Source: Dehalococcoidia bacterium (GTDB taxonomy: Bacteria; Chloroflexota; Dehalococcoidia; GIF9; AB-539-J10). Taken from it: a DNA stretch of 64,000 nt. Below are positions 1,809-51,045 of this stretch, in pieces. The position numbers were made by a program, and so were the translations under genes. How positions within the stretch are numbered: the first letter of the stretch is position 1; each line of letters opens with the position of its first letter. The stretch spans positions 124,762 through 188,761 of the forward strand of contig JBKHJG010000001.1 in assembly GCA_046538235.1 (NCBI GenBank), written 5' to 3'. A model generated the notes under the pieces. That model was given only the letters and a program-made list of their open reading frames with translations. It made no database searches and was not told the DNA's origin.

Positions 1809-2621
1809 ATGAAATCCGGCAAGATTCCCGGGGCCGAAAAGAGCCACACTCATCACAGGCCTGCCTCGGCCAGCGAGGTGGGAGAACGTGACGTCAACAG
1901 ACGAATGCGTATTCTGATAGCCATTCAGGGATACTATGGTGAGAGAATGGTGGACAATATCAGGCGCCATGCTCCGGCGGACTGGGAGGTGAATCACGTT
2001 ACGTTCCCGGCCGGCCTGCCAAACATAATCGACGACGCAGATGAGTTCCTACCCAAGGAGCTGACGGTGGCCGACCTCCTCATATCCCTGGGCGAACATC
2101 CCGGCGTAGCCCAGATGATTCCCGACATGGTCAAAAGGAGCGGAGCCAGGGCAGTGATTGCCCCCGCAGATAACAGGGCGTGGCTACCAATCGGCCTGGC
2201 CAGACAAACCCAGAAGAAAATGGAATCCATGGGAGTGGACATGGTCTATCCCGTCCCCTTCTGTAGCCTGACGGAAAAGGACAGCCAGAACCCCTATATC
2301 CAGGAATTTGCCAGGCATTTCGGCAGGCCGGAAGTGGACATGGAGTTTTACCAGGACGACAGACACAGAGTAGGTAAGGTCACCGTCAACAGAGAGGCTC
2401 CTTGCGGGAGCACGCGGTTCGTGGCCGATCGTCTCGTCGGAGTATGGTTCAGGGACGCCACGGAGCAGGCAGGACTTCTCCATCACCAGTTCCCCTGCAT
2501 GGCGACCATGGCCATGGACCGGGAGTTTGAGGACACCCTTATGCACCGTGCCGGGAACATGCTCAAGCAGACGGTCCAGCAGTCTATCAAGGATGCCGGG
2601 CTCGATAGATACTCAGTATGA
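1809..2621 (+). CDS. conserved hypothetical protein, possibly DUF166/COG1810-like (family assignment uncertain)
   Basis: Clean 270-aa ORF with a strong RBS (AGGAGGTAGAGGTATG). Several Cys residues. The family guess is from memory of archaeal DUF166 proteins and is low confidence. Confidence 0.6.
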   Translation: MKSGKIPGAEKSHTHHRPASASEVGERDVNRRMRILIAIQGYYGERMVDNIRRHAPADWEVNHVTFPAGLPNIIDDADEFLPKELTVADLLISLGEHPGVAQMIPDMVKRSGARAVIAPADNRAWLPIGLARQTQKKMESMGVDMVYPVPFCSLTEKDSQNPYIQEFARHFGRPEVDMEFYQDDRHRVGKVTVNREAPCGSTRFVADRLVGVWFRDATEQAGLLHHQFPCMATMAMDREFEDTLMHRAGNMLKQTVQQSIKDAGLDRYSV

Positions 2622-5138: not shown

Positions 5139-5223
5139 ATGGCAGACCTCCTCTCTATGGGACTTTGAAACCATTATAGCACACGAATATGGCACGCCCC
5201 TTCACCTCACCAGCCTAGGAAAG

Positions 5224-5253
5224 TTGCACACCCCTCCCAAGATGGGCTATACT
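5224..5253 (+). promoter_or_regulatory. sigma70-like promoter for 5S rRNA (TTGCAC-18-TATACT)
   Basis: TTGCAC at 5224-5229 and TATACT at 5248-5253, about 13 nt upstream of the 5S 5' end. Confidence 0.5.
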
Positions 5254-5266
5254 TACCAAGAGGGCT

Positions 5267-5384
5267 TTCTGGTGACCTTAGCGGAGTGGAACCACCCGTT
5301 CCCATCCCGAACACGGAAGTGAAACTCTCCAGCGCAGACGGTACTTGAGGGGCAACTCTCCGGGAGAATATGTCGTTGCCAGGA
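5267..5384 (+). rRNA. rrf: 5S ribosomal RNA, stand-alone (no 23S/16S adjacent in this window)
   Basis: Contains the universally conserved CCCGTTCCCATCCCGAACACGGAAGTGAAAC block. Helix I pairing CUGGUGAC/GUUGCCAG closes the ends. Length is about 115 nt. Confidence 0.85.
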
Positions 5385-5389
5385 AGCTC

Positions 5390-6163
5390 TCATGTTAACT
5401 GCGCCAGGTCAAACTTCAAGCCGTCTCTGGCGGCGATGACCGAGACTCCTATCTCTTCAGTTAGCTTCGCAGCCAGCTCCCACGGCTTTGCCCGCCACAT
5501 GGTCATGCCAAGATGAGTGAGTATGGCCGTCTTCGGCTTGACCTCTTCGATTATTGCCTTTGCCTCCGGGAGAGACAGGTGGTCAATGGGAGCTCCGGGC
5601 CGCAAGCGGACCACATTGATAATCAGCAGGTCTCCTTCGTAGTGACCGGCCAGGCCCTCGAAGTACCTCGTGTCGGTAATCCAGGAGAACGTATGCCGTG
5701 GCGTCCTGACGATGAAGCCGTATGTTTCCACCGGGTGCTTATGCCTGACCGGCGTCTTAATGCAAATGTCATTGATCGCGTAGGACCCTCCCTCGACCAG
5801 CACCTGTACGCCACGGAGATAGGCCTGCAGGTAGGAGAAGACCACGGGCTCTCCGGCGAAGGCATCGGCGGGGGCGAGTACCATCCCCCGCTTCCTGGCA
5901 CCTCCTCCGGTCATAGCCTCAACCATGATGTTGATATCCCCGCTGTGGTCCAGGTGTCTGTGGGACAAGACAATGGCCTCCAGCTTCGTGGGGTCGAGTT
6001 TCCTCCGGGCGGAATGCACCAGGCAGCCCGGGCCGGGATCCAACAGTATCTGGGTACCACCCAGGTCGAGCCAGGCTCCTCCTGAAGCCAGCAACTGGCG
6101 GGCTACCACGAACCTGGCACCGCCGGTGCCCAGGAAGGTGATTACGTCGCTCGCTTCAACCAC
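5390..6163 (-). CDS. MBL-fold metallo-hydrolase
   Basis: HRHLDHSGD metal-binding motif (HxHxDH) and overall beta-lactamase-fold pattern. Confidence 0.85.
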   Translation of the reverse strand: MVEASDVITFLGTGGARFVVARQLLASGGAWLDLGGTQILLDPGPGCLVHSARRKLDPTKLEAIVLSHRHLDHSGDINIMVEAMTGGGARKRGMVLAPADAFAGEPVVFSYLQAYLRGVQVLVEGGSYAINDICIKTPVRHKHPVETYGFIVRTPRHTFSWITDTRYFEGLAGHYEGDLLIINVVRLRPGAPIDHLSLPEAKAIIEEVKPKTAILTHLGMTMWRAKPWELAAKLTEEIGVSVIAARDGLKFDLAQLT

Positions 6164-6201
6164 CCCTCAATTATAGCAGGGAAATCTGCTAGAATTGATG
6201 G

Positions 6202-6723
6202 ATGGCGGGAGAACTGGAAGCCGAACTGGCCCGACTTATGGGAGAATGCAGGGCCAGAACTGGGAAATGGCTGACCATCGGCACCGTGGAATCAGCGACC
6301 GGCGGCAGGGTCGCCGATATGATAACCAATGCCGCCGGCAGTTCGGACTATTTCAGGGGCTCGGTAGTAGCTTACAGCAACGAAGTGAAAGCCCGCTTGC
6401 TGGGGGTGAGACACTCGACCCTGGAGAGGCATGGTGCTGTGAGCAAGCAGACAGCGGTGGAGATGGCTCGGGGCGGCAGGAAGCTCCTGGACGTAGACAT
6501 ATGCATCTCCGATACGGGGATTGCGGGGCCCACAGGCCAGGGCCCCGGAAAGCCGGTAGGGCTATTCTATCTTGGCCTGGCCGCCGGGGACGTGAGCTTG
6601 AGTCAGAAACACCTGTTTCCGGGGAACCGCCAGGAGAACAAACAGGATGCTGCTGAGGCGGCGCTCAAGATGCTGCACCAATACCTGCTGCAGTGCTCCG
6701 GCGAAGCCAGACAACCTGCCTAG
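6202..6723 (+). CDS. CinA C-terminal domain protein / nicotinamide-nucleotide amidohydrolase (PncC-like)
   Basis: TIGTVESATGGRVADMITNAAGSSDYFRGSVVAYSNEVKARLLGV is the CinA-C signature. Confidence 0.85.
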   Translation: MAGELEAELARLMGECRARTGKWLTIGTVESATGGRVADMITNAAGSSDYFRGSVVAYSNEVKARLLGVRHSTLERHGAVSKQTAVEMARGGRKLLDVDICISDTGIAGPTGQGPGKPVGLFYLGLAAGDVSLSQKHLFPGNRQENKQDAAEAALKMLHQYLLQCSGEARQPA

Positions 6724-6886
6724 AATATGCTGATTCGAGAGCGTTCGGCAATGCCGGAGGTGTCGGAAGGCGTAACGCGAGGCCCCGACTCCTTCGAGGG
6801 CGCTCGGTCAAAGCGGCACTTCAGCCTCGTTCAGCACGACCCTCAAGGATGCTCTACAATGTCCCGACAAGGGTGTTTCGAATAGG

Positions 6887-8398
6887 ATGGCAACTTTCGA
6901 TATAGGCGAGATAAGGTCCAGGGCCAAGACCGATTTCACCGCTGCCTGGATAGCTACGGCAAAGCTTGTGCCGGCCGGGACAGAGGTAGCCCTGACAAGC
7001 AAGGGCAGACCCCATCCGGTGATGGAGCTAATCCAGAGGTCCCGGCGGATCATGCTAGACCGGGGCTTTGACGAGGTTCAGAACCTGACGATCCTGCCGG
7101 ACAGCGATGTGGTCAAGCAGTACGGCCCGGAAGCCCGGGTTATCCTCGATAGGTCGTTTTACCTGGCCGAACTGCCCCGCCCCGACATAGGGCTGGGGGC
7201 CAGAAGGATAGCCCAGATAAAGAGGATAGCTGAGGAAGCGGACATCGAGAAACTACAGACCATCCTGAGGAGGTACAAGAAAGGAGAGATCGAGGCTGAT
7301 AACCTGACTGAAGAGCTCATGTCCGGACTGGGCATCACGGATTACCAGGCCGCGGAACTCCTGGAGAAGGTCTTCCCCGAGGTGAGAAAGCTACAGCCGG
7401 TGGCGTCCAACAGGACTCTGCGCAGCCACATGACGGCTACCTGGTTTCATACGTTAGCAGCATTGCAGTACAAGGCCAGCTTTCCCGTGGCCCTGTTCTC
7501 CGTGGGGCCTAGATATCGCAACGAGCAAAGAGAAGATGCACAGCATCTGCGGGTGCACCACTCGGCATCCATCGTGATCATGGACCCACAAATATCACTG
7601 GACGCAGGGCGGGCAACTACCAGGGACATCATGCAGCAATACGGCTTCTCCGAGATCAGATTCAAGACCAAGGCGGCAACATCCAGATATTATGCCCCCG
7701 ATCAGGAGCAAGAGGTCTTTGTAAACGATAAAGGCACCTGGCTTGAAATAGCCGACATCGGAATGTATTCGCCCGTTGCGCTGGCGAACTTCGACATCAA
7801 GTTCCCTGTGTTCAACGCAGGCTTTGGCATCGAGCGTCTGGGGATGCTTCTCTATGGAGCAGAGGACATGAGAAAGCTGGTATATCCTCAGTTCTCCGTG
7901 GCGGAGTATGGTGACGAAGAGATGGCCAGATCCATTTCATACATAGCCAGTCCCGGGACGGTCAGGGGCCGAAGAATAGCCAGAGCAATTGAGGCAACCG
8001 CCCGCAAGTACAGGGAGGAGCTAGCCCCCTGCGAGTTCCCGGCCTGGAAGGACAGGTCCGTTGAGGTGAAGATCGTTGAAAGAGAGACAGGCAAGAAGCT
8101 GATCGGTCCCGCCGGTTTCAACGAGATCTGTGTTCTCAACGGTACGATCTACAGCGATATCGTGCCTTCAGGAATCCCCACAGGAATAAATTACATGCGT
8201 GCTATAGCAATGGGTGTAGCCGCGGCAATAGAAAACGGCCACCGCAGCTTGACTTATCAGGTGAAGGGCGTCAGGCATCTCTCCGACCTCAACCTGCAGA
8301 TTCCGGAACCCCTGCTGCAACATATGGAAGGCCAGCACAAGAAGATCGGAGTCAGTGGTGCCGTATTCGTAACCATAGAAGTCAACAGAAGGCAATGA
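6887..8398 (+). CDS. sepS: O-phosphoserine--tRNA(Cys) ligase (SepRS)
   Basis: Strong collinear identity to methanogen SepRS as recalled (M. jannaschii): KPHPVMETIERLR / FGPEA..LDR.FYLA.LPRPDVGLG / TLRSHMT..WF.TL..L / YHSAS / MVYPQF. Here the sequence reads RPHPVMELIQRSR, YGPEARVILDRSFYLAELPRPDIGLG, TLRSHMTATWFHTLAAL, HHSASIVIMD and LVYPQFSVAEY. Confidence 0.92.
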   Translation: MATFDIGEIRSRAKTDFTAAWIATAKLVPAGTEVALTSKGRPHPVMELIQRSRRIMLDRGFDEVQNLTILPDSDVVKQYGPEARVILDRSFYLAELPRPDIGLGARRIAQIKRIAEEADIEKLQTILRRYKKGEIEADNLTEELMSGLGITDYQAAELLEKVFPEVRKLQPVASNRTLRSHMTATWFHTLAALQYKASFPVALFSVGPRYRNEQREDAQHLRVHHSASIVIMDPQISLDAGRATTRDIMQQYGFSEIRFKTKAATSRYYAPDQEQEVFVNDKGTWLEIADIGMYSPVALANFDIKFPVFNAGFGIERLGMLLYGAEDMRKLVYPQFSVAEYGDEEMARSISYIASPGTVRGRRIARAIEATARKYREELAPCEFPAWKDRSVEVKIVERETGKKLIGPAGFNEICVLNGTIYSDIVPSGIPTGINYMRAIAMGVAAAIENGHRSLTYQVKGVRHLSDLNLQIPEPLLQHMEGQHKKIGVSGAVFVTIEVNRRQ

Positions 8399-8473
8399 TG
8401 GAGGCTACATGTGCCGGGCTTTGCCCGCGATGACAGTCTGATATGTGGAACGCTTGTGGCGTTAGGGTAGAAG

Positions 8474-9613
8474 ATGGAAGACAAGAGAACCAGACGACCG
8501 AACAAGGGCTCCAGCCTGCGCAGACAGCACAAAGGCCTCATTAACCTCATGCCTCTGCAGACGGGTGGGCTGCTGACGGATGCCGCCAGGGAGGCATTGA
8601 TGGAGTTCGGCGATGGATACTCGGTGTGTGATTTCTGTCGCGGAACTTTATGTCAGGTAGACAAACCACCCATCAGGGAGTTCGTCCAGGAGTTGCTGCC
8701 CCGCTTTCTGGGGTGCGACGTGGCCACCGTAACCCACGGGGCCCGGGAGGCCAAATTCATGGTCATGCATTCTCTCGCCAGGCCCGGAGACTCCATTATC
8801 GTCGACGCCAACAGGCACTACACAACGGTGGTAGCGGCTGAGAGGGCAGGACTGCATGTGATCGAGGTGCGCCGCCGCGGACATCCGGAATTCACTGTGG
8901 ACGTCAACGAATATGGGCCCCTGATAGAGAAACACAGGCCCAGGCTGGTCCTGCTGACCTACCCGGACGGCAACTACGGCAACCTTGCTGATGCCGCAAG
9001 GTTAGGAGAGATCGCCCAGCACTACAGCGTTCCTTACGTTGTCAACGGAGCATATGCTGTGGGCAGGCTGCCTGTTAGCATGGAGGAGGTGGGGGCCGAT
9101 TTCATCGTCGGCAGCGGGCACAAGAGCATGGCCTCTGCTGGGCCCATCGGGGTATTGGGCATGAAGAAGAAATGGGCGGCGGCAGTTCTGAGAAAGTCGG
9201 ACATTTATGGCAACAAGGAAGTCGAGCTTCTGGGCTGCAGCTCAAGGGGGGTCCCTCTCATGACGCTCATGGCCTCCTTTCCCCATGTGAAGGAAAGGCT
9301 TGACCACTGGGATGAACAGGTCTCCAAGGCGCAGTGGTTTTCGGCTCGGCTTGAGGAACTGGGCTTTGAGCAGCTAGGGGAGCGACCACACAGGCACGAC
9401 CTGCTGCACTTCGAGGCGCCCGCATTGCACGAGATCTCGGGCCGGGTCCGGGAGAGGGGGTACTTCCTGTATAAAGAACTGAAGGAGCGAGGCATCTGGG
9501 GACCTCAGCCGGGCGTGAGCAGGTCGTTCAAAGTCTCCACCTTCGCCGCCACCAGCCAAGAGCTAGGCTTCGTCGTAGACTCGTTCCGAGCTATCCTGGA
9601 CAAACACAGCTAG
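8474..9613 (+). CDS. pscS: O-phospho-L-seryl-tRNA:Cys-tRNA synthase (SepCysS), PLP-dependent
   Basis: INLMPLQTGGLLTDAAREALMEFGDGYSVCDFC and FLGCDVATVTHGAREAKFMVMHSL match the M. jannaschii SepCysS N-terminal region nearly residue for residue. The PLP-lysine context GSGHKSMA is present. A basic ~12-aa N-terminal extension is present relative to the archaeal protein. Confidence 0.9.
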   Translation: MEDKRTRRPNKGSSLRRQHKGLINLMPLQTGGLLTDAAREALMEFGDGYSVCDFCRGTLCQVDKPPIREFVQELLPRFLGCDVATVTHGAREAKFMVMHSLARPGDSIIVDANRHYTTVVAAERAGLHVIEVRRRGHPEFTVDVNEYGPLIEKHRPRLVLLTYPDGNYGNLADAARLGEIAQHYSVPYVVNGAYAVGRLPVSMEEVGADFIVGSGHKSMASAGPIGVLGMKKKWAAAVLRKSDIYGNKEVELLGCSSRGVPLMTLMASFPHVKERLDHWDEQVSKAQWFSARLEELGFEQLGERPHRHDLLHFEAPALHEISGRVRERGYFLYKELKERGIWGPQPGVSRSFKVSTFAATSQELGFVVDSFRAILDKHS

Positions 9614-10263
9614 CGGACCTGCATCAGAAGCTCAGGGTGCCTTCGGGCATGGCCTTCCCTCAACTGCTGAAAGTCGGCCTGAAAGGCAACAGAGGAAATA
9701 CTATCGGTGCTCATGATGATGGCATCCTCCCCGTTGCTGGAATAATACCTCGGGCGCCTTCCCACCAAGCGGAAGCCGTACTTCCTGTAGAGCCCTTGAG
9801 CTATTTCGTTGGAGGCGCGCACTTCCAGCGTCACTACATCGGCGTTTGATATCTGGGCTAGTTCAACGGTTGCTATGAGCAGGCCCTCGCCGATTCCAGA
9901 CCGCCGATAGCCCTCTCTCACACCTATGGAGATGATGTGCGCCTCGCGCATCATCATCCAGAAGCCGGAAAAGCCGGCTATGCTCGGCGATGCACTGACG
10001 CCACGCTCATGACCGAAACGCCGCTTGAACCAGGAGGCCCTTGTAGGCCCCTCTCCCGGGGACTCAGCCGCTGCTCCTCTTATCGAGGCCACTATATAGC
10101 GGACAGACGGATTATCAAGGTCCCGCTTATATGCCGATTGAGAGCGAAACACCCACTCACCCGGGAAAGCCTCGCGATCGATTTGGGCGACCTCGGCGAT
10201 ATCCTCATACTCCATGCGGCGGATGACGTAGTACGCACCTTCCATCAGCCGAGATTCTAGCAT
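9610..10263 (-). CDS. GNAT family N-acetyltransferase (RimI-like)
   Basis: Acetyl-CoA binding motif ...SIGVREGYRRSGIGEGLL... and a YRKYGF C-terminal block. The ORF-track N-terminal 50 aa is probably over-extended, so the start is placed at MLESRL. Confidence 0.8.
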   Translation of the reverse strand: MLESRLMEGAYYVIRRMEYEDIAEVAQIDREAFPGEWVFRSQSAYKRDLDNPSVRYIVASIRGAAAESPGEGPTRASWFKRRFGHERGVSASPSIAGFSGFWMMMREAHIISIGVREGYRRSGIGEGLLIATVELAQISNADVVTLEVRASNEIAQGLYRKYGFRLVGRRPRYYSSNGEDAIIMSTDSISSVAFQADFQQLREGHARRHPELLMQVR

Positions 10264-10468
10264 AGTGCCCGGTTTCCAACCCCGATCGTCACTCTGGCAC
10301 CCGGCACGGCGGAACACGTGTCTGGCGGATGTCCTTGACCTTGAGAATCGCACCGCGCGGATGGCACGCGGACAGCCGCTACGAATACCGGAGACCTTGC
10401 TCGGGACAGGCAATTAGCTCTCAGGTTGCCGATCCAGGGCTCTTCAGCAGTTCGTGACCCGTTCCCGA

Positions 10469-12796
10469 TCAGGAGGCCTCTTGGGTGCCGCGTCGCCGCC
10501 TCAAGACCCAAACGATCATCGCGACTGAGACAACGGGCAATCCCAGTATAGCGCTCTTCTGATAGGGAGTCGTATCGAGGGCCAGTGCGCTCATAGCCAC
10601 AGCCGGTAGCAGTCCGGTCCTCACCATCGGCTTCAGCTTCGGGTGCGCGGTTATGAACTCGGCTATCGGCGGACTGATGGCATAGTAGAAACCCGCAAAG
10701 GCCCGGCCGCCCGTGTTGGTTAGCAGATACTCGTCTCTGAACTCACGCAGGACCACCAGTTGGCCGGCCATCGGGGTGTCATAGGCTGCGGTACAGGAAC
10801 AGCACGATGACCCAACCCTATCAAAACCGGCCTCGATTGAATACGAGCTGTCCATGACGATGGTAGTTGAGGTATTGGTGGCATCTGCAATGGTGTCCGC
10901 GTCGCCAGACCAGCCCACAAACCTGTAGCCATTCTCTGCCTCGGCTGCAAGGCTGATCTTGCTACCGAGAGTACATGAGAACTCGCCTTCACCGGGAATG
11001 GTGACCGAGCCACCCTGGGTGCTGGATATGGTCAATACCGCCACCAGTTCAGGCCACGTCTCGAAATTGGCGGTGATGGAGTAGGAGTCGTGCATGGTGA
11101 CGGCAGTCCGGCTGGCATAGACATCAACAATCGTATCTACGTCGCCGGTCCACTTCACAAACCGGTATCCTTCAGCGGGCTCGGCCACGAGCGTGACCAC
11201 CGTTCCCGCCGTGCGGATGAAGATGCCCTCACCGGGTTCAGTAACCGAGCCGCCGGCCGTGCTGGAGATGGTCAGCCTGTAAAGGTCCGATATTAGTTCA
11301 AAACTGGCGGTGATTGCGTAATCACCGTCCATCGTTATGGTGGTTTCGTCAGCCCCGACATCTTCCACGGTGGCCGTATCCCCGGTCCACCCCGCGAACC
11401 GGTAACCATCGTCGGCCTCGGCCACGAGTTCGACCACCGCCCCATCATCATAAGCGAAGGTCGCCTCTCCGGGTTGGACTACCGAGCCACCCTCAGTGCC
11501 GGAGATCGTGAGGCTGTGCAGGCCGGGCATCAGTTCGAACTTGGCGCCTACCGAGTAATCACCGTCCATGGTGATGGTGGTTTCGGCAGCCCCGACATCG
11601 GCAATGGTGGCCACATCCCCGGTCCACTCCACAAACCGGAAACCATCATCGGGCTCGGCCACCAGTGTAACTACCTCCTGTAGATCATAAGGGAACACCC
11701 CCTCACCCGGTACGGTTACAGCGCCGCCGGCGGTGCTGGAGACGGTGAGGTAGGACACGTTCTCCTGAGGCCCAACGGCAATGCCAAGCGCATCGATGAT
11801 GTGCTCTGCCTTACTGATGACGGCGTGGGTTTCCGAGCCCGCAAAGACCAGCCCCACGAACTCTCCTTCCCTATCCACCCCCGACCCCGAGTCGCCCGAG
11901 GCCGCGAAGGACCAGTCCTCCTGCGTCACCACGATCTGGTCCACGAAGTAAGCTGATTGGTCGCCGTACCACACCAGAAAGGATGCGCTGACATGGACCA
12001 CCTCGCCCATGGTGACCCCGGTCGTCCGTCCGGATTTCCGGACGACATCGCCCTTGGAGACCCCGGTCCAACCTTCCACCCAATAGTTCCCTTCTTCGCC
12101 GAATTGCTCACCGGGAGACAGATCGACGTCATCGTCAATGCTGCCTATGGCGGCATCGGCGTAGTTTCTGGCATTAGACCCGAAATCAATGGGTACGTAT
12201 ACCTCGAGTTCTCCCACCCGGTTGGGCAGTCTTCCTCTATCACCGGTTCCCGGCTGGGTGATGGGTGTGCCATTCTCCAGAAACCGATCGCTGCGCGGCT
12301 CCATGGCGACAACGTGGGCATTGGACAGGATCTTGCCATCATAGGTGACCATGCCCAGGGTGCCGGCATAAAGGTATATGAGCCCCCCTTTGGTGACATA
12401 GGCCGACAGGCTTATCCCTCCCATTAGAGGCCTGACCGCACTTTGCCTGTCCTCGCTGACCCCGGCTACTGGTTCAACCACCTCCGTAGCAAGCGATTCT
12501 ATTCTGCCGGTGACCTCTGTTTTCACCGCATAGCCTGCAAACGAGGACGGCACCTCCCGCTTTGCCTGCTCATCCTCGACAAATACGATGATCTCTCTCT
12601 CACCTGGCGAATGGGCGATGCCGGCAAAGCCGGCGCCTGCCAGAGGCAAGAGGTCTGCCTCCAAGGCCGTTCTGGCCTCCGTCAGCGATATGACGAGCTC
12701 CAGATTATGTCCACCCGAGGCCGGAACTGAGCTAATAAGCAACACACCGACGAGAATCGGCGTGATCAGCAGCAGAACCTTCTTACGCGTTCTCAT
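10469..12796 (-). CDS. secreted S1-family (chymotrypsin-fold) serine protease with 4 tandem InlB-B/Flg_new-type repeats and an unclassified C-terminal Cys-rich domain, TM segment and Arg-rich tail
   Basis: Signal peptide MRTRKKVLLLITPILVGVLLISSVPASG. Catalytic His context LSNAHVV and Ser context GDSGSGV. Four ~75-aa repeats with the GYRFV.WTGD pattern. The C-terminus reads CCSCTAAYD...LPVVSVAMIVWVLRRRRGTQEAS. Confidence 0.8.
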   Translation of the reverse strand: MRTRKKVLLLITPILVGVLLISSVPASGGHNLELVISLTEARTALEADLLPLAGAGFAGIAHSPGEREIIVFVEDEQAKREVPSSFAGYAVKTEVTGRIESLATEVVEPVAGVSEDRQSAVRPLMGGISLSAYVTKGGLIYLYAGTLGMVTYDGKILSNAHVVAMEPRSDRFLENGTPITQPGTGDRGRLPNRVGELEVYVPIDFGSNARNYADAAIGSIDDDVDLSPGEQFGEEGNYWVEGWTGVSKGDVVRKSGRTTGVTMGEVVHVSASFLVWYGDQSAYFVDQIVVTQEDWSFAASGDSGSGVDREGEFVGLVFAGSETHAVISKAEHIIDALGIAVGPQENVSYLTVSSTAGGAVTVPGEGVFPYDLQEVVTLVAEPDDGFRFVEWTGDVATIADVGAAETTITMDGDYSVGAKFELMPGLHSLTISGTEGGSVVQPGEATFAYDDGAVVELVAEADDGYRFAGWTGDTATVEDVGADETTITMDGDYAITASFELISDLYRLTISSTAGGSVTEPGEGIFIRTAGTVVTLVAEPAEGYRFVKWTGDVDTIVDVYASRTAVTMHDSYSITANFETWPELVAVLTISSTQGGSVTIPGEGEFSCTLGSKISLAAEAENGYRFVGWSGDADTIADATNTSTTIVMDSSYSIEAGFDRVGSSCCSCTAAYDTPMAGQLVVLREFRDEYLLTNTGGRAFAGFYYAISPPIAEFITAHPKLKPMVRTGLLPAVAMSALALDTTPYQKSAILGLPVVSVAMIVWVLRRRRGTQEAS
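10849..11764 (-). repeat. four tandem ~225-bp intragenic repeats encoding the B-repeat domains of the protease
   Basis: Repeated protein blocks LTISSTAGGSVT.PGEG.F...G..V.LVAEP..GYRFV.WTGD....DV......T.D..YS..A.FE, mirrored at DNA level by recurring accatcgtcggcctcggccacgag-like strings. Confidence 0.7.
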
Positions 12797-13160
12797 CTCT
12801 TCTCGTCTGCCGGGCGGGGCCCCACGTCCGTCCTTTCATGCCACAAAAGGCCGTAACCCGGCCTGCTATCGGTACTCCTCCATCGTGCCACTTCTCACGT
12901 GTTCGTAGCAATTCAGGCAGGGCCGATGTGAAAATAGCTCGCCGAAGCAGTGAAGCAACGTCAAGTCTTAGTGCTTGCTCAATGCCCTGGACCTCGAACG
13001 TTTGCGTATCATACTGCACCACCCTCGCACCGTGTCAACTTTTCCGCTTCCCAGCGACCACAAGGCTGGCACCATAGCCAGACCGGGGCCGCACCAGGAG
13101 AAGCAACTCCGGGATACGGGCCCCGGTTCAATTAGAGCCGTCGAGGTCAGGCTGTACCGG

Positions 13161-14312
13161 CTATGCGATGTTGCCCTTCTTCAGCGTCTCGGTGGGCCTG
13201 AAGACGCTGACACCAAACTGCTGGGCCAGATCCTCGCACATTTTGGCCAGCTTATCGTATCCTATTCCTTTGGCAAGTTGGAAGGGGCCGAACCCGCCAC
13301 CACCGCCGTTGACCATGGCCTTGTCGATTTCCTCGGCGCTCTTGACCACTCCGTCCTCGAGCAACTTGGTGGCCTCGTTGACCTGAATAGCAATCAGGGC
13401 GGTGGGGTCGAAGTCCTCCTTGGCCTTGGACAGGTCTATCTCCGGTCTGCCCTTGGACCAGTCATAGATGCCTTTGCCCGTCTTCTTCCCCAGATCACCG
13501 GCATCTATCCTGGCTTTGAGCCAGGCGGCCGGCTCATAGTCACGCGAAAGCCTCTCGGCGAAATAAAGCGCGCTGTGATAAGCGACGTCCAGCCCCACAT
13601 AGTCCATCAGCTCATACGGCCCCATAGGCATGCCCACCTTCTTCATCCTGGCATCGATTTGCTCCGGACTGGCTATGCCCCTCTCCACGATATGCCGGAG
13701 CAGGATGGCAGTGGGAGCGTTGATCCGATTGTAGACAAACCCGATGGAGTCCTTCTCCACCCTGACCGGCACCTTGTTCATCTTCAGCGCCAGGTCATAT
13801 GTCACCTTCATCGTGTCCTCGCTTGTCTTCTCTCCCTTTATGACTTCGACCAGCTTCATGAGGACCGCCGGGTTGAAGAAATGCATGCCCACCACCTGCT
13901 CAGGCCTGTTGGTAGTTGAGGCAATCTCGGTGATGCTCATATTGGAGGTGTTGGAGGCCAGTATGGCATGTTTGGGAGCAGCCGCATCCAGTGCCTGGAA
14001 GACCTGCTTCTTGAGGTCCATGATCTCGGGGACGGCCTCGATCACAAAATCGGCGTCCTTAACAGCCTCGGCAATATCCACAAAGGTCTCGATATTGGCC
14101 AGCATGGCCTTCTTATTGTCTTCGCTGACTTTCTGCTTCTCAACAAGCTTATCCAGGCTCTCCTTGATCCTGGAAAGCCCCCTGTCAACAAACCGCTGCT
14201 CGATATCCCGCATCGCTACCTTGTAGCCGGCAAGTAGCGCCACCTCGGCGATGCCATGCCCCATGTCACCCGCTCCCATGACCGCAATCTTCTTGATGTC
14301 TTCGACTTTCAT
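13161..14312 (-). CDS. 3-hydroxyacyl-CoA / 3-hydroxybutyryl-CoA dehydrogenase (NAD-binding domain plus extended C-terminal domain)
   Basis: IAVMGAGDMGHGIA Rossmann motif with the 3HCDH pattern and a C-terminal 3HCDH_C-like extension. Confidence 0.88.
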   Translation of the reverse strand: MKVEDIKKIAVMGAGDMGHGIAEVALLAGYKVAMRDIEQRFVDRGLSRIKESLDKLVEKQKVSEDNKKAMLANIETFVDIAEAVKDADFVIEAVPEIMDLKKQVFQALDAAAPKHAILASNTSNMSITEIASTTNRPEQVVGMHFFNPAVLMKLVEVIKGEKTSEDTMKVTYDLALKMNKVPVRVEKDSIGFVYNRINAPTAILLRHIVERGIASPEQIDARMKKVGMPMGPYELMDYVGLDVAYHSALYFAERLSRDYEPAAWLKARIDAGDLGKKTGKGIYDWSKGRPEIDLSKAKEDFDPTALIAIQVNEATKLLEDGVVKSAEEIDKAMVNGGGGGFGPFQLAKGIGYDKLAKMCEDLAQQFGVSVFRPTETLKKGNIA

Positions 14313-14463
14313 GCCTTAAACCCTCCTTTTGCCTTATTCTTTCGTTCGTTCTTAGTCAGCGCCATCGAAGCGCCTCAGGCCCACGCTCCTGTAACCGGTC
14401 GCTTCGTCACATCCGAAAAGCAACCTCCGCAATGACCGGACCGCGCGCTCCCCGCGCAGGAAG

Positions 14464-15240
14464 CTATTCGCCCCTGAACACCGGCTCCCGTTTCTCGACG
14501 AAGGCTATCATCCCTTCCATAGCGTCCTTGGTCTTGCCGACCCGCTGTGACCCTTCCAGTTCTATCCTCAGGCCCTGGTCGATGGTGGTCTCCAGTCCCC
14601 GGGTCACCGCATCCAGAATTATCTGCACGGCGATGGGGGCCTTCTTAGCCAGAGCCCTGGCCAGCTCCTTGGCGTCACCCATCAGTTGCCCGGGCTGAGA
14701 TACCTTGGTGATCAGCCCGATGCTCAGAGCCTCGGGGGCCCTGATTCTGGTGCCGAGCAGGAGCATTTCCAGGGCCTTGGTCTTACCCACCAGCCTGGGC
14801 AGCCGCTGGGTGCCACCCCAGCCCGGTATGATTCCCAGGTCGATCTCGGGCTGGCCGGCCACCACTCGCTCCGAGTCGACCATTATCCTGAAATGGCAGG
14901 ACATTGCCAGCTCGCAGCCACCGCCGAGGGCAAACCCGTTCAGGGCGGCGATTACGGGCTTGGGATACTTCTCGATGCGGCTGAAGACCTCCTGGCCGAA
15001 AGACATGGCCTTTTCGCCCTCCGGCGTCCCGGCCGTCTTAACGTCAAAGCCGGCCGAAAACCCTCTCTCGCCGGAGCCGGTGATGATTACGGCCCTCACC
15101 TCTTTGTCTTTTTCCCACTCGTTCAGAGCCTTATCCAGTTCTTCGAGTACGGACAGATTTATGGGGTTTGCCGGCGGCCGGTTCAGGGTTATTATGCCGA
15201 CATTCTCCTCCCTCTCCACAATCAGATTCTCATAAGCCAT
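14464..15240 (-). CDS. enoyl-CoA hydratase (crotonase family)
   Basis: VGIITLNRPPANPIN...ITGSGERGFSAGFDV...GGGCELAMSCHFRI crotonase signature. Confidence 0.9.
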   Translation of the reverse strand: MAYENLIVEREENVGIITLNRPPANPINLSVLEELDKALNEWEKDKEVRAVIITGSGERGFSAGFDVKTAGTPEGEKAMSFGQEVFSRIEKYPKPVIAALNGFALGGGCELAMSCHFRIMVDSERVVAGQPEIDLGIIPGWGGTQRLPRLVGKTKALEMLLLGTRIRAPEALSIGLITKVSQPGQLMGDAKELARALAKKAPIAVQIILDAVTRGLETTIDQGLRIELEGSQRVGKTKDAMEGMIAFVEKREPVFRGE

Positions 15241-15394
15241 TAGGCCCTCCTTGTTTTGATGTTTTTGGCAAGCGCAATGATAGCTCCAGTGAACTAGATT
15301 TCCATACCGCCCGCTTCCAGCAAGTCAGCCCGCAAAGCACCGCACCCATAGAAACAACGAGATGTTAGCACCGGCAGCAGCCGCCTGTCAACGG

Positions 15395-16294
15395 CTAGAG
15401 GTAGCGATGATGGCCTGGCTGCCCGTCCTGCCGGGTAGCCACGAGATATGTTTCGGCAGCGTGGAAGGAACTGCGCACCAAGGGGCCGGAAGCCACATAC
15501 CGGAAACCGAGCTGCTTCCCGATGTTCTCATATTCCGCAAACTCCTCAGGGGAAACATACCTGACCAGCTTGTGATGCTTTAGCGAAGGCTGTAAGTACT
15601 GGCCGATGGTCAGTAGATCGCAGCCGACCTGCCTGAGGTGATTCATCACGTCGATGACCTCCTGTTGAGTCTCACCCAGGCCCACCATAAGGCCGGACTT
15701 GGTCATAAGCTCTGAGTTGAACAGCCTGGCCTGCTTCAGAAGCTCCAGGGATCGCCGGTAGTCTGCCTGAGGACGGACCTCAGCGTAAAGCCGGGGGACC
15801 GTCTCCACGTTGTGATTGAGAACAGCCAGCGTCGTATCGGTCACAGTCAGGAGGGCCGAAAGGGAACCCCCCAAATCAGGGATAAGGGCTTCCACCATGA
15901 TTGCCGGGTTGTAGCTATGAATGGCCTCAATGGTGCAGGCAAAGTGGGAAGCGCCGCCATCGGGTAGGTCGTCTCTGGTGACAGAGGTGATAACTACATA
16001 CCTGAGCTGGAGTTCCGCCACTGCGGCCACGACATTCTCAGGCTCGTGCAGGTCGGGCGCTTGAGGGCGCCCGCTCTGCACAGCGCAAAACGTGCAGTTG
16101 CGCGTGCAGACATTCCCCAGTATCATGAAGGTGGCAGTACCTTCAGCATAGCATTTCTGACGGTTGGGACAACGGGCGCTTTCGCATACCGTATGCAGCT
16201 TTAGCGTACGGGTGAGGTTTCTCATAGGGGCAAGGGCGGCCCCGTCGAATGGGCTCAGCTTCAGCCACTCAGGCCGTCTAATATAGCCAGGCAT
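15395..16294 (-). CDS. lipA: lipoyl synthase
   Basis: Radical-SAM CTRNCTFCAV cluster plus the auxiliary cluster CESARCPNRQKC. Confidence 0.92.
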   Translation of the reverse strand: MPGYIRRPEWLKLSPFDGAALAPMRNLTRTLKLHTVCESARCPNRQKCYAEGTATFMILGNVCTRNCTFCAVQSGRPQAPDLHEPENVVAAVAELQLRYVVITSVTRDDLPDGGASHFACTIEAIHSYNPAIMVEALIPDLGGSLSALLTVTDTTLAVLNHNVETVPRLYAEVRPQADYRRSLELLKQARLFNSELMTKSGLMVGLGETQQEVIDVMNHLRQVGCDLLTIGQYLQPSLKHHKLVRYVSPEEFAEYENIGKQLGFRYVASGPLVRSSFHAAETYLVATRQDGQPGHHRYL

Positions 16295-17010
16295 TTCTTA
16301 TCTTCCCGTTCGATCTGCAGGCCGAATACCGCCGAGAAAGCATCAAGCAGAGGTCTTATGACGGCTTCAACTTCCACGCGATATCCCAGCACTTTGGAGA
16401 GCGAAGTCATTACTTTGCCGCTGAGCCCGCAGGGATTAATGTATCCGAAGTGACGGAGGTCCGTACTCACATTAAGAGCAAAGCCATGCGCGGTGATACC
16501 ACGGCTGACACGTATGCCAATTGAGCAGATCTTCTCCCCATTGACCCAGACGCCGGGATAATCTGCGTCGCAGTAGGCGCGGACACCAAAATCGAGCAGT
16601 AGCCGTATGATGGTGGCCTCGAGTTTGGAGATATACTCACGCACGCCAAGGCTATTTTCCTTGAGACTGATAATCGGATAGCCCACCAGCTGTCCAGGGC
16701 CATGATAGGTGACGCCTCCTCCGCGGTTGGTATGAACAACGGTCATTCCCTCCCGGGCCAGCCTCTCGGCGGGGACTACTATGTCCTCCTCCCCCCTGAA
16801 CCGACCTACGGTGAATACCGCAGGATGCTGGAGGAGGAGGAAGATATCCGCAACCGTACGTCTGGCTCTGGCCAGCATCAAGACGTCCTGTAGCTTCAGG
16901 GCATGTTCATACGCTATCATTCCCAGGTAGTCTGCAAGGCACACTATCCGGGATGTCAGGCCGTGTTCTTCCGAAACGCCCGACCCGCCGGCTCTGTTCT
17001 CCATATACAT
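16261..17010 (-). CDS. lipB: octanoyltransferase (lipoyl(octanoyl) transferase)
   Basis: RGGGVTYHGPGQLVGYPI LipB signature. Overlaps lipA by ~34 nt. Confidence 0.88.
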   Translation of the reverse strand: MYMENRAGGSGVSEEHGLTSRIVCLADYLGMIAYEHALKLQDVLMLARARRTVADIFLLLQHPAVFTVGRFRGEEDIVVPAERLAREGMTVVHTNRGGGVTYHGPGQLVGYPIISLKENSLGVREYISKLEATIIRLLLDFGVRAYCDADYPGVWVNGEKICSIGIRVSRGITAHGFALNVSTDLRHFGYINPCGLSGKVMTSLSKVLGYRVEVEAVIRPLLDAFSAVFGLQIEREDKKCLAILDGLSG

Positions 17011-22774: not shown

Positions 22775-22994
22775 AACAACAAGGGGCAATCTGTGCTAGA
22801 CAGATTGCCCCTGTCCTGTTACCTGAGAGCTTGCCCGCCAGCCACTTGCGGGCTTACACCTTCGGTGACCTCATGTCGAGGTCTCTCCAGGGATTTCTGC
22901 CTGCGGTAGTCCTTTTGCCTGAGAGTTTCAAGACCTCCCACCGGTGCTCTGTCTCTTGCCCCTTCGGCTCCCCTTGTGAGGCATCTCCTACCGC
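22775..22994 (-). promoter_or_regulatory. tandem glycine riboswitch (two aptamers) with a terminator-type expression platform, in the gcvT leader
   Basis: Minus-strand reading gives aptamer 1: GCGGUAG-GAGAUGCCUCACAAGGGGAGCCGAAGGGGCAA...AAACUCUCAGGCAAAAGGACUACCGC. Aptamer 2: CUGGAGAGACCUCGACAUGAGGUCACCGAAGG...GCUCUCAGGUAACAGGACAG. These are followed by a perfect hairpin GGGGCAAUCUG-ucuagca-CAGAUUGCCCC and UUGUUGUU. Confidence 0.88.
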
Positions 22995-23015
22995 AAGTCA
23001 ACAATCGTAACTAAG

Positions 23016-23043
23016 CTTATAGCATGCTGCGCATAGTTGTCAA
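23016..23043 (-). promoter_or_regulatory. sigma70-like promoter of the gcv operon (TTGACA-16-TATAAG)
   Basis: Minus-strand TTGACA (plus 23038-23043) and TATAAG (plus 23016-21), placing the TSS a few nt before riboswitch P1. Confidence 0.55.
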
Positions 23044-23048
23044 CAGGT

Positions 23049-24308
23049 CGAATTGCGTCAAAATTGATGTTACCGAAAGGAGGTAAGGTGACACGACGCA
23101 GCATAGCAGAATACGGTGAGGCGGTGCGGGTGCGTTATGCCCGGGCCAGTAAGAAGGAAAAGACAGGGATACTGGACGAGTTTGTGGCTACCACGCGTAT
23201 GCACCGAAAGGCGGTGATAAGGTTACTGAATCGGAGGGGTAGGCCCTCAGGGAGGAGAAAGAGAGGGCGTCCCAGGTTATACGGACATGAGGCGATGGCA
23301 GCACTTAAGGCGGTATGGGAAGCTAGCGACTGCTTGTGCTCCAGGCGTCTGCAGCCCTTTCTGCCGGAACTGATCGACGTGCTGAAGAGATGCGGTGAGC
23401 TTACAATGAGCAGGGAGACGGAGGCCCAGCTTTGCCAGATGAGTCAATCGACTATAGACCGTCTGCTGCACTGCTGGCGGAGGAGTAGTACACGACGTGG
23501 TCTAAGCACTACCAAACCAGGCACACTGTTGAAGAATTCGATTCCGATCAGGACTTTCGGTGATTGGAGTGAGAACAAACCTGGTTTTCTGGAGGCTGAC
23601 CTTGTAGCTCACTGTGGAGAGAGCACGGAAGGCTTTTATCTCACCACATTGTCCACCGTGGATGTGGCCACCGGCTGGTGTGAGCCAATTGCGGTATGGG
23701 GCAAAGGCCAGGACCGTGTTGGCGGCGCCGTCTACCGTGTGAGCAAGCAGCTCCCCATGCCAATGCTTGGCTTGGACTCAGACAATGGCAGCGAATTCAT
23801 CAACCAAAGCCTCTACAACTACTGTCAGCGCAATGGTATCGTCTTTACCAGGTCACGCTCCTACAAGAAGAATGATAGTTGTCATGTTGAGCAGAAGAAC
23901 TGGACAGTGGTAAGACGGGTAATAGGCTATGACCGCTTCAGTTCCAGGGCAGCATTGCAGGCCCTGGGGGATGTCTATGCTGTGCTGCGGTTGTATATCA
24001 ACTTCTTCCAGCCGGCCTCGAAACTGGTGAGAAAGAGCCGGCATGGAGCCAGGGTCTACAAGGTCTATGATACTGCCCGGACACCTTACCAGCGCCTGCT
24101 CGAAAGTGGAGTACTAACTGAGAATAAGAAGCGCGAGCTGGCTGATCTGTACGCCACCCTCAACCCGGTAACCCTCCTAAAAGAGATCGAACGATCGGTA
24201 GATCATCTCTGCACCCTGGCTGAAAGGCAGGCGGTACAATCAGTTCGGTAACAATAATTATGACGCAACAAGGAGCACTTCGGTAACACTTACTTTTGAC
24301 GCAACACG
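23049..24308 (+). mobile_element. insertion sequence (~1260 bp) with ~31-bp imperfect terminal inverted repeats and a 5-bp CAGGT target-site duplication
   Basis: Left end cgaaTTGCGTCAAAAttgatGTTACCGAAg versus reverse complement of right end cgtgTTGCGTCAAAAgtaagtGTTACCGAAg. CAGGT at 23044-48 and 24309-13 flanks both ends. A single transposase ORF lies inside. Confidence 0.75.
23088..24251 (+). CDS. DDE-type transposase (integrase-core/rve fold; IS481/ISNCY-like, family not resolved)
   Basis: DDE catalytic residues in the contexts EADLVAHCGES..., GLDSDNGSEF and HVEQKNWTVVRR. N-terminal HTH region. GTG start 8 nt after AAAGGAGGT inside the left inverted repeat. Confidence 0.8.
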   Translation: MTRRSIAEYGEAVRVRYARASKKEKTGILDEFVATTRMHRKAVIRLLNRRGRPSGRRKRGRPRLYGHEAMAALKAVWEASDCLCSRRLQPFLPELIDVLKRCGELTMSRETEAQLCQMSQSTIDRLLHCWRRSSTRRGLSTTKPGTLLKNSIPIRTFGDWSENKPGFLEADLVAHCGESTEGFYLTTLSTVDVATGWCEPIAVWGKGQDRVGGAVYRVSKQLPMPMLGLDSDNGSEFINQSLYNYCQRNGIVFTRSRSYKKNDSCHVEQKNWTVVRRVIGYDRFSSRAALQALGDVYAVLRLYINFFQPASKLVRKSRHGARVYKVYDTARTPYQRLLESGVLTENKKRELADLYATLNPVTLLKEIERSVDHLCTLAERQAVQSVR

Positions 24309-24405: not shown

Positions 24406-25701
24406 ATGATTTACTGGGCCCAATTACTGCACTTCTATCAGCCACCGACCCAGGTACCATCGGTGCTGAAGAAGATATGTGACGAATCATACCGTCCCTT
24501 ACTCCAGGTCTTTGAGGACTACCCCAACGCCCGGGCAACCGTGAACTTCAACGGTGTCCTGACCGATATGCTGATGGACTGCGGCCATGGAGATGTAATC
24601 GATGGCTTGAGAGGCCTTGCCGAGAAGGGCCAACTCGAATTCACCGGAACCGGCAAGTACCACCCTATTCTGCCGCTCATACCCAAAGAGGAAGTCAAGA
24701 GGCAGATAGATCTGAACACACAGACCAGTCGCCGCTTCTTTGGCAAGGCATACGCGCCCCAGGGATTCTTCCCCCCGGAGATGTGCTACAGCCAGGACAT
24801 ACTGCAGCCTGTAGTCAAGTCAGGGCATCGCTGGATCATCCTCAGCGGTATTGCCTGCCCGGCAGAATGGCCGGTGGATACCGTCTGCAAGGCGGAGTGT
24901 GATGGACAGGAGATAGCCGTCTTCTTCCGCGACGACGTGCTCAGCAACAGGATAAGCTTTCAGGACCTGAAGGCGACGGAGTTCCTTGCCCACCTTGAAC
25001 AGTGGCAGGGCGAGAGAGAGAGCATCTATGTGGTCACGGCCATGGACGCCGAGACCTATGGCCACCACATTCAAGACTGGGAAAAGACATTCCTGGCCAG
25101 AGTCTACCAAGAACTGGAAGCAACTGCCGGGCCCGTTGAGGAGGTCAGGCAGGCCAAGGCGCTGGCCGGACAGCACGCCGCCCTTCTGACCAACGGCGAA
25201 GCCGCCGGCCAGATACAGATGGCTACTATCAGCCAGCTCCTCGACCTCTTTCCGCAGGGCCCTACGATAGAGCCCAGGCCCTCCTCCTGGAGCACCACGG
25301 CCGATGATATGGAGGCCGGTGATTACTATCCCCTGTGGCAGGACAAGAATAATGAAGTACATCGTCTGCAGTGGGAACACCTCGGCATCTGCATTGAGCT
25401 GGTGAACAAAGCTCTCCAATGTGCCGATAATGATGAGAGCCGGCACTCTGCCGCCATTGCCCGGGGACTCCTGGATCGCGCCGAGCACAGCTGCCAGATG
25501 TGGTGGGCCAGTAATCGCCCTATGTGGGACATCAACCTCATCCATATGGGCTTGCTCGACCAGCTGCGGACCATAGTCAACGCCTACCGAGCTATAAACA
25601 AGAGCGGGGCCGGAGACGACACGAAGCGAGAGTATTACTACCGCACGATTGCTGCCAGGGATATCAGAAACAAGCTGGAAGACCGTCTGTTCGTGCAGTA
25701 G
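24406..25701 (+). CDS. glycoside hydrolase family 57 protein (short form, 431 aa)
   Basis: Collinear with T. litoralis GH57 4-alpha-glucanotransferase regions. LHFYQPP corresponds to HNHQP, SYRPLLQVFEDYP to SYRPFMEILEEFP, and EKGQLEFTGTGKYHPILPLIPKEE to KRGQLEIV..FYEP.L..IPKED. Nucleophile Glu in FPPEMCY; acid/base Asp in MDAETYGHH. Confidence 0.8.
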   Translation: MIYWAQLLHFYQPPTQVPSVLKKICDESYRPLLQVFEDYPNARATVNFNGVLTDMLMDCGHGDVIDGLRGLAEKGQLEFTGTGKYHPILPLIPKEEVKRQIDLNTQTSRRFFGKAYAPQGFFPPEMCYSQDILQPVVKSGHRWIILSGIACPAEWPVDTVCKAECDGQEIAVFFRDDVLSNRISFQDLKATEFLAHLEQWQGERESIYVVTAMDAETYGHHIQDWEKTFLARVYQELEATAGPVEEVRQAKALAGQHAALLTNGEAAGQIQMATISQLLDLFPQGPTIEPRPSSWSTTADDMEAGDYYPLWQDKNNEVHRLQWEHLGICIELVNKALQCADNDESRHSAAIARGLLDRAEHSCQMWWASNRPMWDINLIHMGLLDQLRTIVNAYRAINKSGAGDDTKREYYYRTIAARDIRNKLEDRLFVQ

Positions 25702-25719
25702 CATGCTGAGGAGAGGGCC

Positions 25720-26949: not shown

Positions 26950-26962
26950 AGAGCGGATTACT

Positions 26963-37689: not shown

Positions 37690-37776
37690 CGTACAAGAAC
37701 GGAATGCCGTTGGATGCGATTAGACATGGCTTCCTACAATGGTTACAATAGCCATCACTAGACACCTGGCGGGCAG

Positions 37777-39054: not shown

Positions 39055-39060
39055 CAGTTC

Positions 39061-40485: not shown

Positions 40486-40687
40486 CGTCAGTCCCACAGC
40501 CATATCCCGGCCCGTGCAGGAGCTTGCTCTCACGGTTGCGTTTCTTGCCTTCTCACGACGATGACCGCGGCCTGAACGCCCGGATTCAGCCCTGTTTGCC
40601 CATTCTCTTTGACAGAGACATACAGATAAGGCACAATCTTTCCTGAAACAGGATTATCACCTGCCAGCAAGGCGGAGTTCTGGTGCC

Positions 40688-42682: not shown

Positions 42683-42725
42683 GATAGAGGGCTCATATCA
42701 TGACGCTGTAACATCCCGGTGATAA

Positions 42726-43091: not shown

Positions 43092-43094
43092 CTT

Positions 43095-46496: not shown

Positions 46497-46529
46497 CCCG
46501 CATCCTCCCTCAAAGGGAGGATTTCGGAT

Positions 46530-48497: not shown

Positions 48498-48522
48498 AAC
48501 GGGGCACCTGACGCGGGCGTAC

Positions 48523-49959: not shown

Positions 49960-50019
49960 GTCACCGCCTGTCTTGTATATACCGCATCGCCTCTCCCCTC
50001 AAGGCTCCATGGCTGCGGC

Positions 50020-51012: not shown

Positions 51013-51045
51013 GATATCGCTCCCTGACAGATCGTATCCGTCTCT

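Follow-up and report, generated by a model that had tools for sequence, protein, structure and literature searches.

Operons that associate the gene of SepRS, the O-phosphoseryl-tRNA synthetase, with that of SepCysS, the Sep-tRNA:Cys-tRNA synthase (Sep stands for O-phosphoserine), were described in Chloroflexi (Dehalococcoidia) and in Parcubacteria by Mukai et al. 2017 (mBio, PMC5424206). A Chloroflexi pair originating from the hot-spring metagenome 3300002966 was tested biochemically: Sep-tRNA-Cys was formed and converted to Cys-tRNA-Cys in vitro, and the pair was active in E. coli (PMC5424206). Example genomes include Chloroflexi bacterium RBG_13_51_36 and Dehalococcoidia bacterium CG2_30_46_9 and CG2_30_46_19 (PMC5424206). 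The present analysis addresses a gene pair of this kind carried by a 64,000-nucleotide stretch from a Dehalococcoidia bacterium (assembly GCA_046538235.1, contig JBKHJG010000001.1, positions 124,762 to 188,761), hereafter called the window, in which an original prediction, made from the letters alone, had recognized adjacent SepRS and SepCysS genes. The locus is very probably the sepS-sepCysS operon of a Dehalococcoidia bacterium that belongs, by vertical inheritance, to the bacterial lineage reported by Mukai et al. The feature is real, correctly identified and already known. The family, its occurrence in this class of bacteria, its particular traits and its activity have all been published, and the exact proteins are already correctly annotated: the SepRS is 100% identical to GenBank MFP3897809.1 ('O-phosphoserine--tRNA ligase [Dehalococcoidia bacterium]') and the SepCysS is 100% identical to MFP3897810.1 ('O-phospho-L-seryl-tRNA:Cys-tRNA synthase'), from a Dehalococcoidia metagenome-assembled genome in which they lie on a contig of 257,224 bp.

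Three plus-strand open reading frames (ORFs) follow one another at the locus, at 6202-6723 (173 aa), 6887-8398 (503 aa) and 8474-9613 (379 aa), and the predicted 75-bp gap between SepRS and SepCysS matches the coordinates of the last two. The gene at 6887..8398 (plus strand) is sepS and encodes a SepRS of the bacterial (Chloroflexi) clade. Its product scores 431.3 bits with the NCBIfam equivalog model TIGR00470 (curated cutoff 380.65), whereas the runner-up model, PheS, gives 84.5 bits for a cutoff of 237 (cutoffs of the PheRS-alpha models are 237-350) and the PylS model 24 bits. Residues 4-498 align in a single stretch with residues 3-530 of the Archaeoglobus fulgidus SepRS (PDB 2du3; E 1.7e-109), with 42-43% identity. 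This alignment covers the full SepRS architecture, i.e. the N-terminal extension, the class II catalytic core, the insertion domain and, at the C-terminus, the anticodon-binding domain, whereas PheRS structures match by the catalytic core only (~1e-13). In agreement with the original prediction, both profile and PDB searches therefore assign the protein to SepRS and not to PheRS-alpha paralogs. All the motif blocks listed for it are found, namely HPVME (aa 43-47), GPEARVILDRSFYLAELPRPDIGLG (80-104), TLRSHMT (177-183) and YPQF (333-336), except that the FGPEA of the original prediction reads YGPEA in the window.

The gene at 8474..9613 (plus strand) is sepCysS. Its 379-aa product reaches 519.9 bits with the equivalog model TIGR02539 (cutoff 365.25), the runner-up being SufS with 43 bits for a cutoff of 475; cysteine desulfurase models stay at about 43 bits. 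It aligns end to end with the A. fulgidus SepCysS (PDB 2e7i/2e7j; E 1.5e-138, 55% identity) and also matches the Methanocaldococcus jannaschii enzyme (E 5.7e-109). The expected blocks PLQTGGLLTDAAREALMEFGDGYSVCDFC (27-55), FLGCDVATVTHGAREAKFMVMHSL (78-101) and GSGHKS (213-218) are all in place, and the top homologs in profile and PDB searches are SepCysS rather than generic aminotransferases dependent on pyridoxal phosphate (PLP). PheRS alpha, SepSecS and class V aminotransferases share superfamily folds with the window pair, but their models score far under their cutoffs, and in PDB searches these distant relatives give E-values of 1e-13 and 1e-8, to be compared with 1e-109 for SepRS and 1e-138 for SepCysS.

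The residues that define the two active sites are conserved. In SepRS, His181-Met182-Thr183, at the end of TLRSHMT (7427..7435, plus strand), align with His186-Met187-Thr188 of A. fulgidus, positions which reportedly bind the phosphate of Sep in the 2du3 structure. Likewise, Ser226-Ala-Ser228 (7562..7570, plus strand) align with Ser231/Ser233, which are reportedly involved in Sep recognition in that structure. The Asn-X-Gly motif is present as Asn310-Ala-Gly312 (7814..7822, plus strand) and corresponds to Asn325-Leu-Gly327 of A. fulgidus; the Sep pocket is thus retained, as the original prediction required. In SepCysS, Cys52 and Cys55 (8627..8638, plus strand) align with A. fulgidus Cys39 and Cys42, and a third conserved cysteine, Cys255 (9236..9238, plus strand), with A. 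fulgidus Cys247. The conserved cysteines, to which roles in the chemistry of persulfides and Fe-S have been attributed, are retained in the Chloroflexi SepCysS (PMC5424206). The lysine expected to form the Schiff base with PLP is Lys217, within GSGHKS (9122..9124, plus strand); it aligns with A. fulgidus Lys209 and with M. jannaschii Lys234, the latter being the PLP-linked residue (PMC5688128).

These residues bear directly on a first alternative, according to which the two proteins would be degenerate paralogs, one SepRS-like and the other SepCysS-like, that act on a different substrate or in a different role, comparable to the SepRS-like proteins of Thermoplasmata and Deltaproteobacteria on the one hand, and to cysteine desulfurases or SepSecS-type enzymes on the other hand. 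Such SepRS-like proteins do exist (PMC8762117), and the window SepCysS also matches the Pfam models SepSecS and Aminotran_5. However, Asn-X-Gly, which is invariant among genuine SepRS but modified in the SepRS-like proteins of other specificity (PMC8762117), is intact here, the PLP lysine and all three cysteines are kept, and both equivalog cutoffs are passed while the PheS, SufS and CsdA models stay well short of their own. As close homologs are moreover active (PMC5424206), the paralog explanation is largely refuted and appears very improbable.

The assignment of the pair to the bacterial lineage relies on two published signatures. Bacterial SepRS have lost the motif that recognizes m1G37: a hydrophilic residue, in most cases Asp, takes the place of Ile444, and the helix after it is missing (PMC5424206). 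Bacterial SepCysS are devoid of the loop 144-147 of the A. fulgidus enzyme and lack an 8-aa insertion between positions 234 and 235 (PMC5424206). Alignments indicate that the window proteins carry both signatures. In the anticodon-binding domain of SepRS, the sequence IYS-DIVPSG (8147..8173, plus strand) is devoid of the 8 residues that would correspond to A. fulgidus 444-451, that is Ile444 and the following helix, and continues with Asp424; an identical gap and the same S-D pattern are found in the published bacterial SepRS RBG_13_51_36, Deep_marine_Sb2 and Alkali_sediment_b1. In SepCysS, a 4-residue deletion (8930..8956, plus strand) lies opposite A. fulgidus ~146-149, and no insertion is observed at 234/235.

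Compared with the operons of Mukai et al., the window locus therefore shares the gene pair and its order, the deletion of the m1G37 motif with an Asp, the deletion of the SepCysS loop and the lack of the 8-aa insertion, as well as the three cysteines, the N-terminal tail of SepCysS and the lack of SepCysE. One of the described examples, RBG_13_51_36 (locus L015 of the comparison below), has the same gene order and encodes a SepRS and a SepCysS that are 75% and 77% identical to those of the window. The synteny includes an aldolase gene, a 5S rRNA gene, an MBL gene, CinA, SepRS, SepCysS, RimI and a gene encoding a CFI-box protein. The two loci differ by sequence divergence and by the somewhat longer 75-bp spacer of the window, and by nothing different in kind. 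The A. fulgidus SepRS and SepCysS1 are related to the window proteins over their full length and share their domains, Sep-pocket residues, PLP lysine and three cysteines, but the window SepRS is devoid of Ile444 and of the helix that follows it, and the window SepCysS lacks the 4-residue loop and has 13 additional N-terminal residues.

By analogy with the characterized enzymes, SepRS, a class II synthetase related to PheRS alpha, would use ATP to activate O-phosphoserine and esterify it onto tRNA-Cys. As it lacks the element that reads m1G37, a bacterial tRNA-Cys of the A37 type should be accepted. SepCysS, with its PLP and three sulfur-carrying cysteines, would then turn the tRNA-bound phosphoserine into cysteine, yielding Cys-tRNA-Cys, probably through a dehydroalanyl-tRNA intermediate followed by a persulfide attack. 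The whole would operate as a two-component system devoid of a SepCysE scaffold, like the Chloroflexi pair in vitro. More generally, the sequence data establish the identity of the genes, their intact catalytic residues, the lineage signatures, the conserved operon organization, the bacterial nature of the host and the existing annotation, whereas the activity, the choice of tRNA, the physiological role (cysteine synthesis with or without a parallel cysteinyl-tRNA synthetase, CysRS) and the sulfur donor are proposed by comparison with characterized homologs.

The genomic context is that of a bacterium. As the original prediction had pointed out, a glycine riboswitch (22897-23000, minus strand), dnaN and efp are found in the window. 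The riboswitch precedes gcvT, which is followed by gcvH, gcvPA, gcvPB, lpd, lipB and lipA, and the window also harbours glgC, glgA, glgB, malQ, a treS-maltokinase fusion, the pyruvate kinase gene, mgtE, corA and a two-component system. The GC content of the window is flat, at about 0.58. The values of sepS and sepCysS, 0.554 and 0.592 overall and 0.677 and 0.734 at third codon positions (GC3), are inside the range of the dnaN, efp, gcv and glg genes.

To assess the distribution of the locus, the SepRS was used as query against a collection in which each GTDB species is represented by a single genome. This search retrieved 73 loci whose SepRS is 61-80% identical to that of the window, and the titles of all of them refer to Dehalococcoidia, Dehalococcoidales or Chloroflexota/Chloroflexi (two of them to 'Chloroflexia'). 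All 61 related loci that have room for it encode SepCysS downstream of SepRS in the same orientation, usually at a distance of 2-36 bp. Of the 48 loci with enough upstream sequence, 43 have CinA-C upstream in this orientation, and a gene encoding a RimI-type acetyltransferase is found downstream in convergent orientation in 47 of 49. The original prediction had considered this two-step route as sporadic in bacteria; this does not hold in this lineage, where it occurs in 73 species-representative genomes. Conserved synteny over at least 73 species-level genomes argues for an old locus, vertically inherited within the clade, rather than for a sporadic or recent gain.

The same data bear on the possibility that the genes are archaeal DNA brought in by mis-assembly, by mis-binning or by a methanogen-to-bacterium transfer of very recent date. 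Such an origin would fit a pathway known above all from methanogens and a source that is a metagenome-assembled genome. However, the genes lie in 64 kb of bacterial housekeeping genes with a uniform GC content and a matching GC3. In addition, the order CinA-SepRS-SepCysS-RimI recurs in dozens of independent assemblies, and an independent Logan assembly (SRR21542050, 5,973-bp contig) holds identical genes. Finally, identity to the archaeal enzymes is 42-55%, whereas it reaches 61-80% with other Dehalococcoidia. A recent transfer from a methanogen was rejected on the basis of GC/GC3 composition and clade-wide synteny, and the probability of an archaeal origin of this kind, artefacts included, is close to nil.

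The organization as a bacterial operon is apparent: sepCysS comes right after sepS, on one strand, between bacterial flanks. The 75-bp spacer (8399..8473, plus strand) contains no terminator-like hairpin, which, together with the tight spacing observed in relatives, suggests that sepS and sepCysS are probably co-transcribed in the window. A promoter and terminator scan inside the operon was uninformative, the counts being at the level of shuffled sequences. Three points weigh against the interpretation of the locus as a functional operon of this lineage. The first is that the 75-bp spacer exceeds the 2-36 bp usual in relatives, and translational coupling is therefore less likely in the window. 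The second is that no tRNA-Cys gene occurs in the window or within 10 kb on either side of 60 related loci; the window has no tRNA gene of any kind, in agreement with the absence of a nearby tRNA(Cys) gene already reported for it. The third is that the activity of these particular proteins is deduced from characterized homologs; the window SepRS would form Sep-tRNA-Cys as its Chloroflexi homolog does in vitro.

The archaeal system best suited for comparison beyond the two enzymes themselves is the transsulfursome of M. jannaschii (PDB 5x6b, 5x6c, 3wkr). It has in common with the window locus the two catalytic enzymes, the chemistry and an N-terminal chain on SepCysS, but differs by its SepCysE scaffold, which was not detected at the window locus. 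Indeed, tblastn searches with MJ1481 and the M. thermautotrophicus SepCysE (both from Data Set S1 of PMC5424206), which work at the level of the locus and with low sensitivity, gave no match better than E 0.8 in the window and the 73 related loci. The 75-bp spacer is too small for any gene, SepCysE included. More broadly, neither a SepCysE gene nor a homolog of the SepCysSn/SepCysSN helix-turn-helix, the marks of a transsulfursome, was found at the locus. The lack of a nearby SepCysE gene noticed at the outset is thus borne out by these searches, but is nothing particular to the window, since bacterial systems are as a rule devoid of SepCysE (PMC8762117). As SepCysE is undetected here and none is known in bacteria, channelling within a ternary complex is not expected.

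The N-terminus of SepCysS had been described as a short basic extension. It is indeed basic: the tail reads MEDKRTRRPNKGSSL (8474..8518, plus strand), and residues 1-25 include 8 Lys/Arg for 2 Asp/Glu. The term extension applies only by comparison with A. fulgidus. According to alignment offsets, the tail exceeds the A. fulgidus SepCysS by about 13 residues and falls about 12 residues short of the N-terminal chain of the M. jannaschii enzyme, and its length is conserved throughout the clade, the start codon being located 26 codons before PLQ in most relatives (consensus MEQKSSKSLQKLSGLRREHKGLINLMPLQTGG). A basic tail is also present in the published SepCysS of RBG_13_51_36. The view that the tail corresponds to a fused SepCysSN domain was rejected, given that it goes only ~13 residues past A. 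fulgidus and is shorter than the M. jannaschii chain. In the crystal, this chain lies over the T-stem of the tRNA and adds slightly to binding (PMC5688128). By correspondence with part of it, the tail of the window SepCysS may contact the tRNA. In two relatives, L065 and L068, SepCysS begins 12 codons later, i.e. 14 and not 26 codons before PLQ, so the distal half of the tail seems dispensable. In these two loci, an ORF of 110-111 aa is located between SepRS and SepCysS (11557-11892 in L065, 11580-11912 in L068); one of the two products weakly matches DUF3147.

Two roles can be considered for the operon. In the first one, SepRS and SepCysS would provide the sole route to Cys-tRNA-Cys in an organism devoid of CysRS and of a free-cysteine synthase, as in many methanogens. 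The strict synteny over at least 73 species suggests a strong selection that would suit such a role. A tblastn search with an E. coli CysS probe did not reveal any cysS in 1.05 Mb made of the window and of the related flanks (best E 0.12, which is noise), but it covered a small and non-random fraction of the genomes, so this absence is nearly uninformative. Furthermore, SepRS and CysRS commonly occur together (PMC8762117). This role is possible but rather doubtful. In the second one, the operon would work beside CysRS and mainly serve cysteine biosynthesis under sulfidic, anoxic conditions. It is the reading favoured for organisms that have both systems (PMC8762117), methanogen-type genes of sulfur assimilation co-occur in Dehalococcoidia that carry SepRS (PMC5424206), and sulfur-related genes are inserted inside the operon in some relatives. 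We regard it as reasonably probable.

A bolder combination may be envisaged, in which the clade would be wholly reliant on the tRNA-bound route to cysteine (no CysRS and no free-cysteine synthase), the basic tail of SepCysS would replace SepCysE in holding tRNA-Cys, and the 5S rRNA-cinA-sepS-sepCysS cluster would be co-regulated with the translation apparatus. Taken together, this is unlikely.

The existence of tRNA-dependent cysteine synthesis in bacteria is relevant to the way in which cysteine joined the genetic code and to the assimilation of sulfur by subsurface Chloroflexota, which are abundant. This significance was already argued in 2017 on biochemical grounds, with an extension in 2022, and the window provides one more correctly annotated member. 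With respect to the SepRS papers (PMC5424206, PMC8762117), the only unpublished features are the conserved neighbourhood, with a lone 5S rRNA gene and CinA-C, and the occasional insertions in the operon. The additions are thus modest: a stable neighbourhood (5S rRNA, CinA-C, SepRS, SepCysS and convergent RimI) in at least 73 species-level genomes, and transporter or sulfur-related insertions in some relatives.

The gene upstream of sepS (6202..6723, plus strand) encodes a stand-alone 173-aa protein of the CinA-C/PncC type (NMN amidohydrolase family), as inferred in the original prediction, which had placed it directly upstream in the same orientation; it matches PF02464 (E 5.8e-49) and TIGR00199 (137.9 bits, cutoff 68.9). 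CinA-C is a conserved neighbour of sepS-sepCysS without any shown functional link. The 163-bp spacer between the two genes (6724..6886, plus strand) contains no recognized RNA element. A permissive Rfam scan of 5200-10500 (E<=1) for a T-box or another RNA leader 5' of sepS retrieved the 5S rRNA alone, and a consensus scan did not find any promoter-like or terminator-like sequence in 6724-6886. Its length varies among relatives between 25 bp and 2.8 kb, and inserted genes can be present in it.

The lone 5S rRNA gene is located 5' of CinA-SepRS-SepCysS on the same strand (5268-5384, plus strand; 97.6 bits, full length), without an adjoining 23S rRNA gene and close to a promoter-like site (5225-5253). 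Among the 73 related loci, 45 have a copy with 85-96% identity at the corresponding position, for example at 9179-9292 in L054 and 9172-9285 in L058. In a more divergent subclade, the 5S rRNA gene directly precedes CinA, SepRS and SepCysS, at ~200-350 bp from one another. This linkage of a 5S rRNA gene with SepRS-SepCysS is not mentioned in the SepRS papers (PMC5424206, PMC8762117).

Several relatives carry genes inserted in or next to the operon. In L010, a 5.3-kb insert (11503-16771) separates SepRS from SepCysS and carries three genes on the operon strand: the first product is a cation-efflux (CDF) protein, another has a domain annotated 'Sulphur transport' (YeeE/YedE-like), and another is a cysteine desulfurase-type class V aminotransferase; the insert could be a sulfur-supply module for SepCysS. 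The CDF gene is present alone or with a SpoIIM-like gene in L005 and L011. In seven other loci (L007, L012, L016, L018, L019, L024 and L028), about 2.5-2.8 kb separate CinA from SepRS and contain opposite-strand genes encoding a channel of the formate/nitrite transporter (FNT) family (347 aa) and a protein with a cyclic-nucleotide-binding domain (152 aa). The FNT family includes hydrosulfide channels, and a link of these inserts with sulfide is conceivable. Finally, about ten relatives (L001, L004, L006, L020, L035, L043, L047, L068, L070 and L024) carry an ABC-2 pair on the operon strand (ATPase of ~314 aa, permease of ~243 aa), which occupies ~1.8 kb between MBL and CinA.

Other genes of the window deserve a brief mention. 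On the minus strand, 10469-12796 encodes a 775-aa secreted or surface protein with repeats of the Listeria-Bacteroides type and a CFI-box-CTERM sorting domain (78 bits, cutoff 40), which is conserved 3' of RimI in several relatives. The gene at 1809-2621 (plus strand) encodes a protein of the DUF166 family with a sub-threshold match to the DfsP (seleno)protein model (78 bits for a cutoff of 200). Downstream of dnaN, a pair of ORFs at 55158-55358 and 55361-55606 (both on the plus strand; 66 and 81 aa) was judged by eye to be HicA/HicB-like, in agreement with the hicAB originally noticed; the first one starts with MKLSELIRLLEHNGFELIRHKGS and resembles HicA, the second HicB. A 404-aa ORF that adjoins the glycine riboswitch and the gcv operon (23037-24251, plus strand) weakly matches an IS481-family transposase (E 6e-9, far under the cutoff). 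Three consecutive large ORFs (431, 409 and 630 aa; 24406-28855, plus strand) give no match or faint branching-enzyme-like matches, and are located near the glycogen/trehalose cluster (35557-53761), which includes a TreS-maltokinase fusion of 1133 aa.

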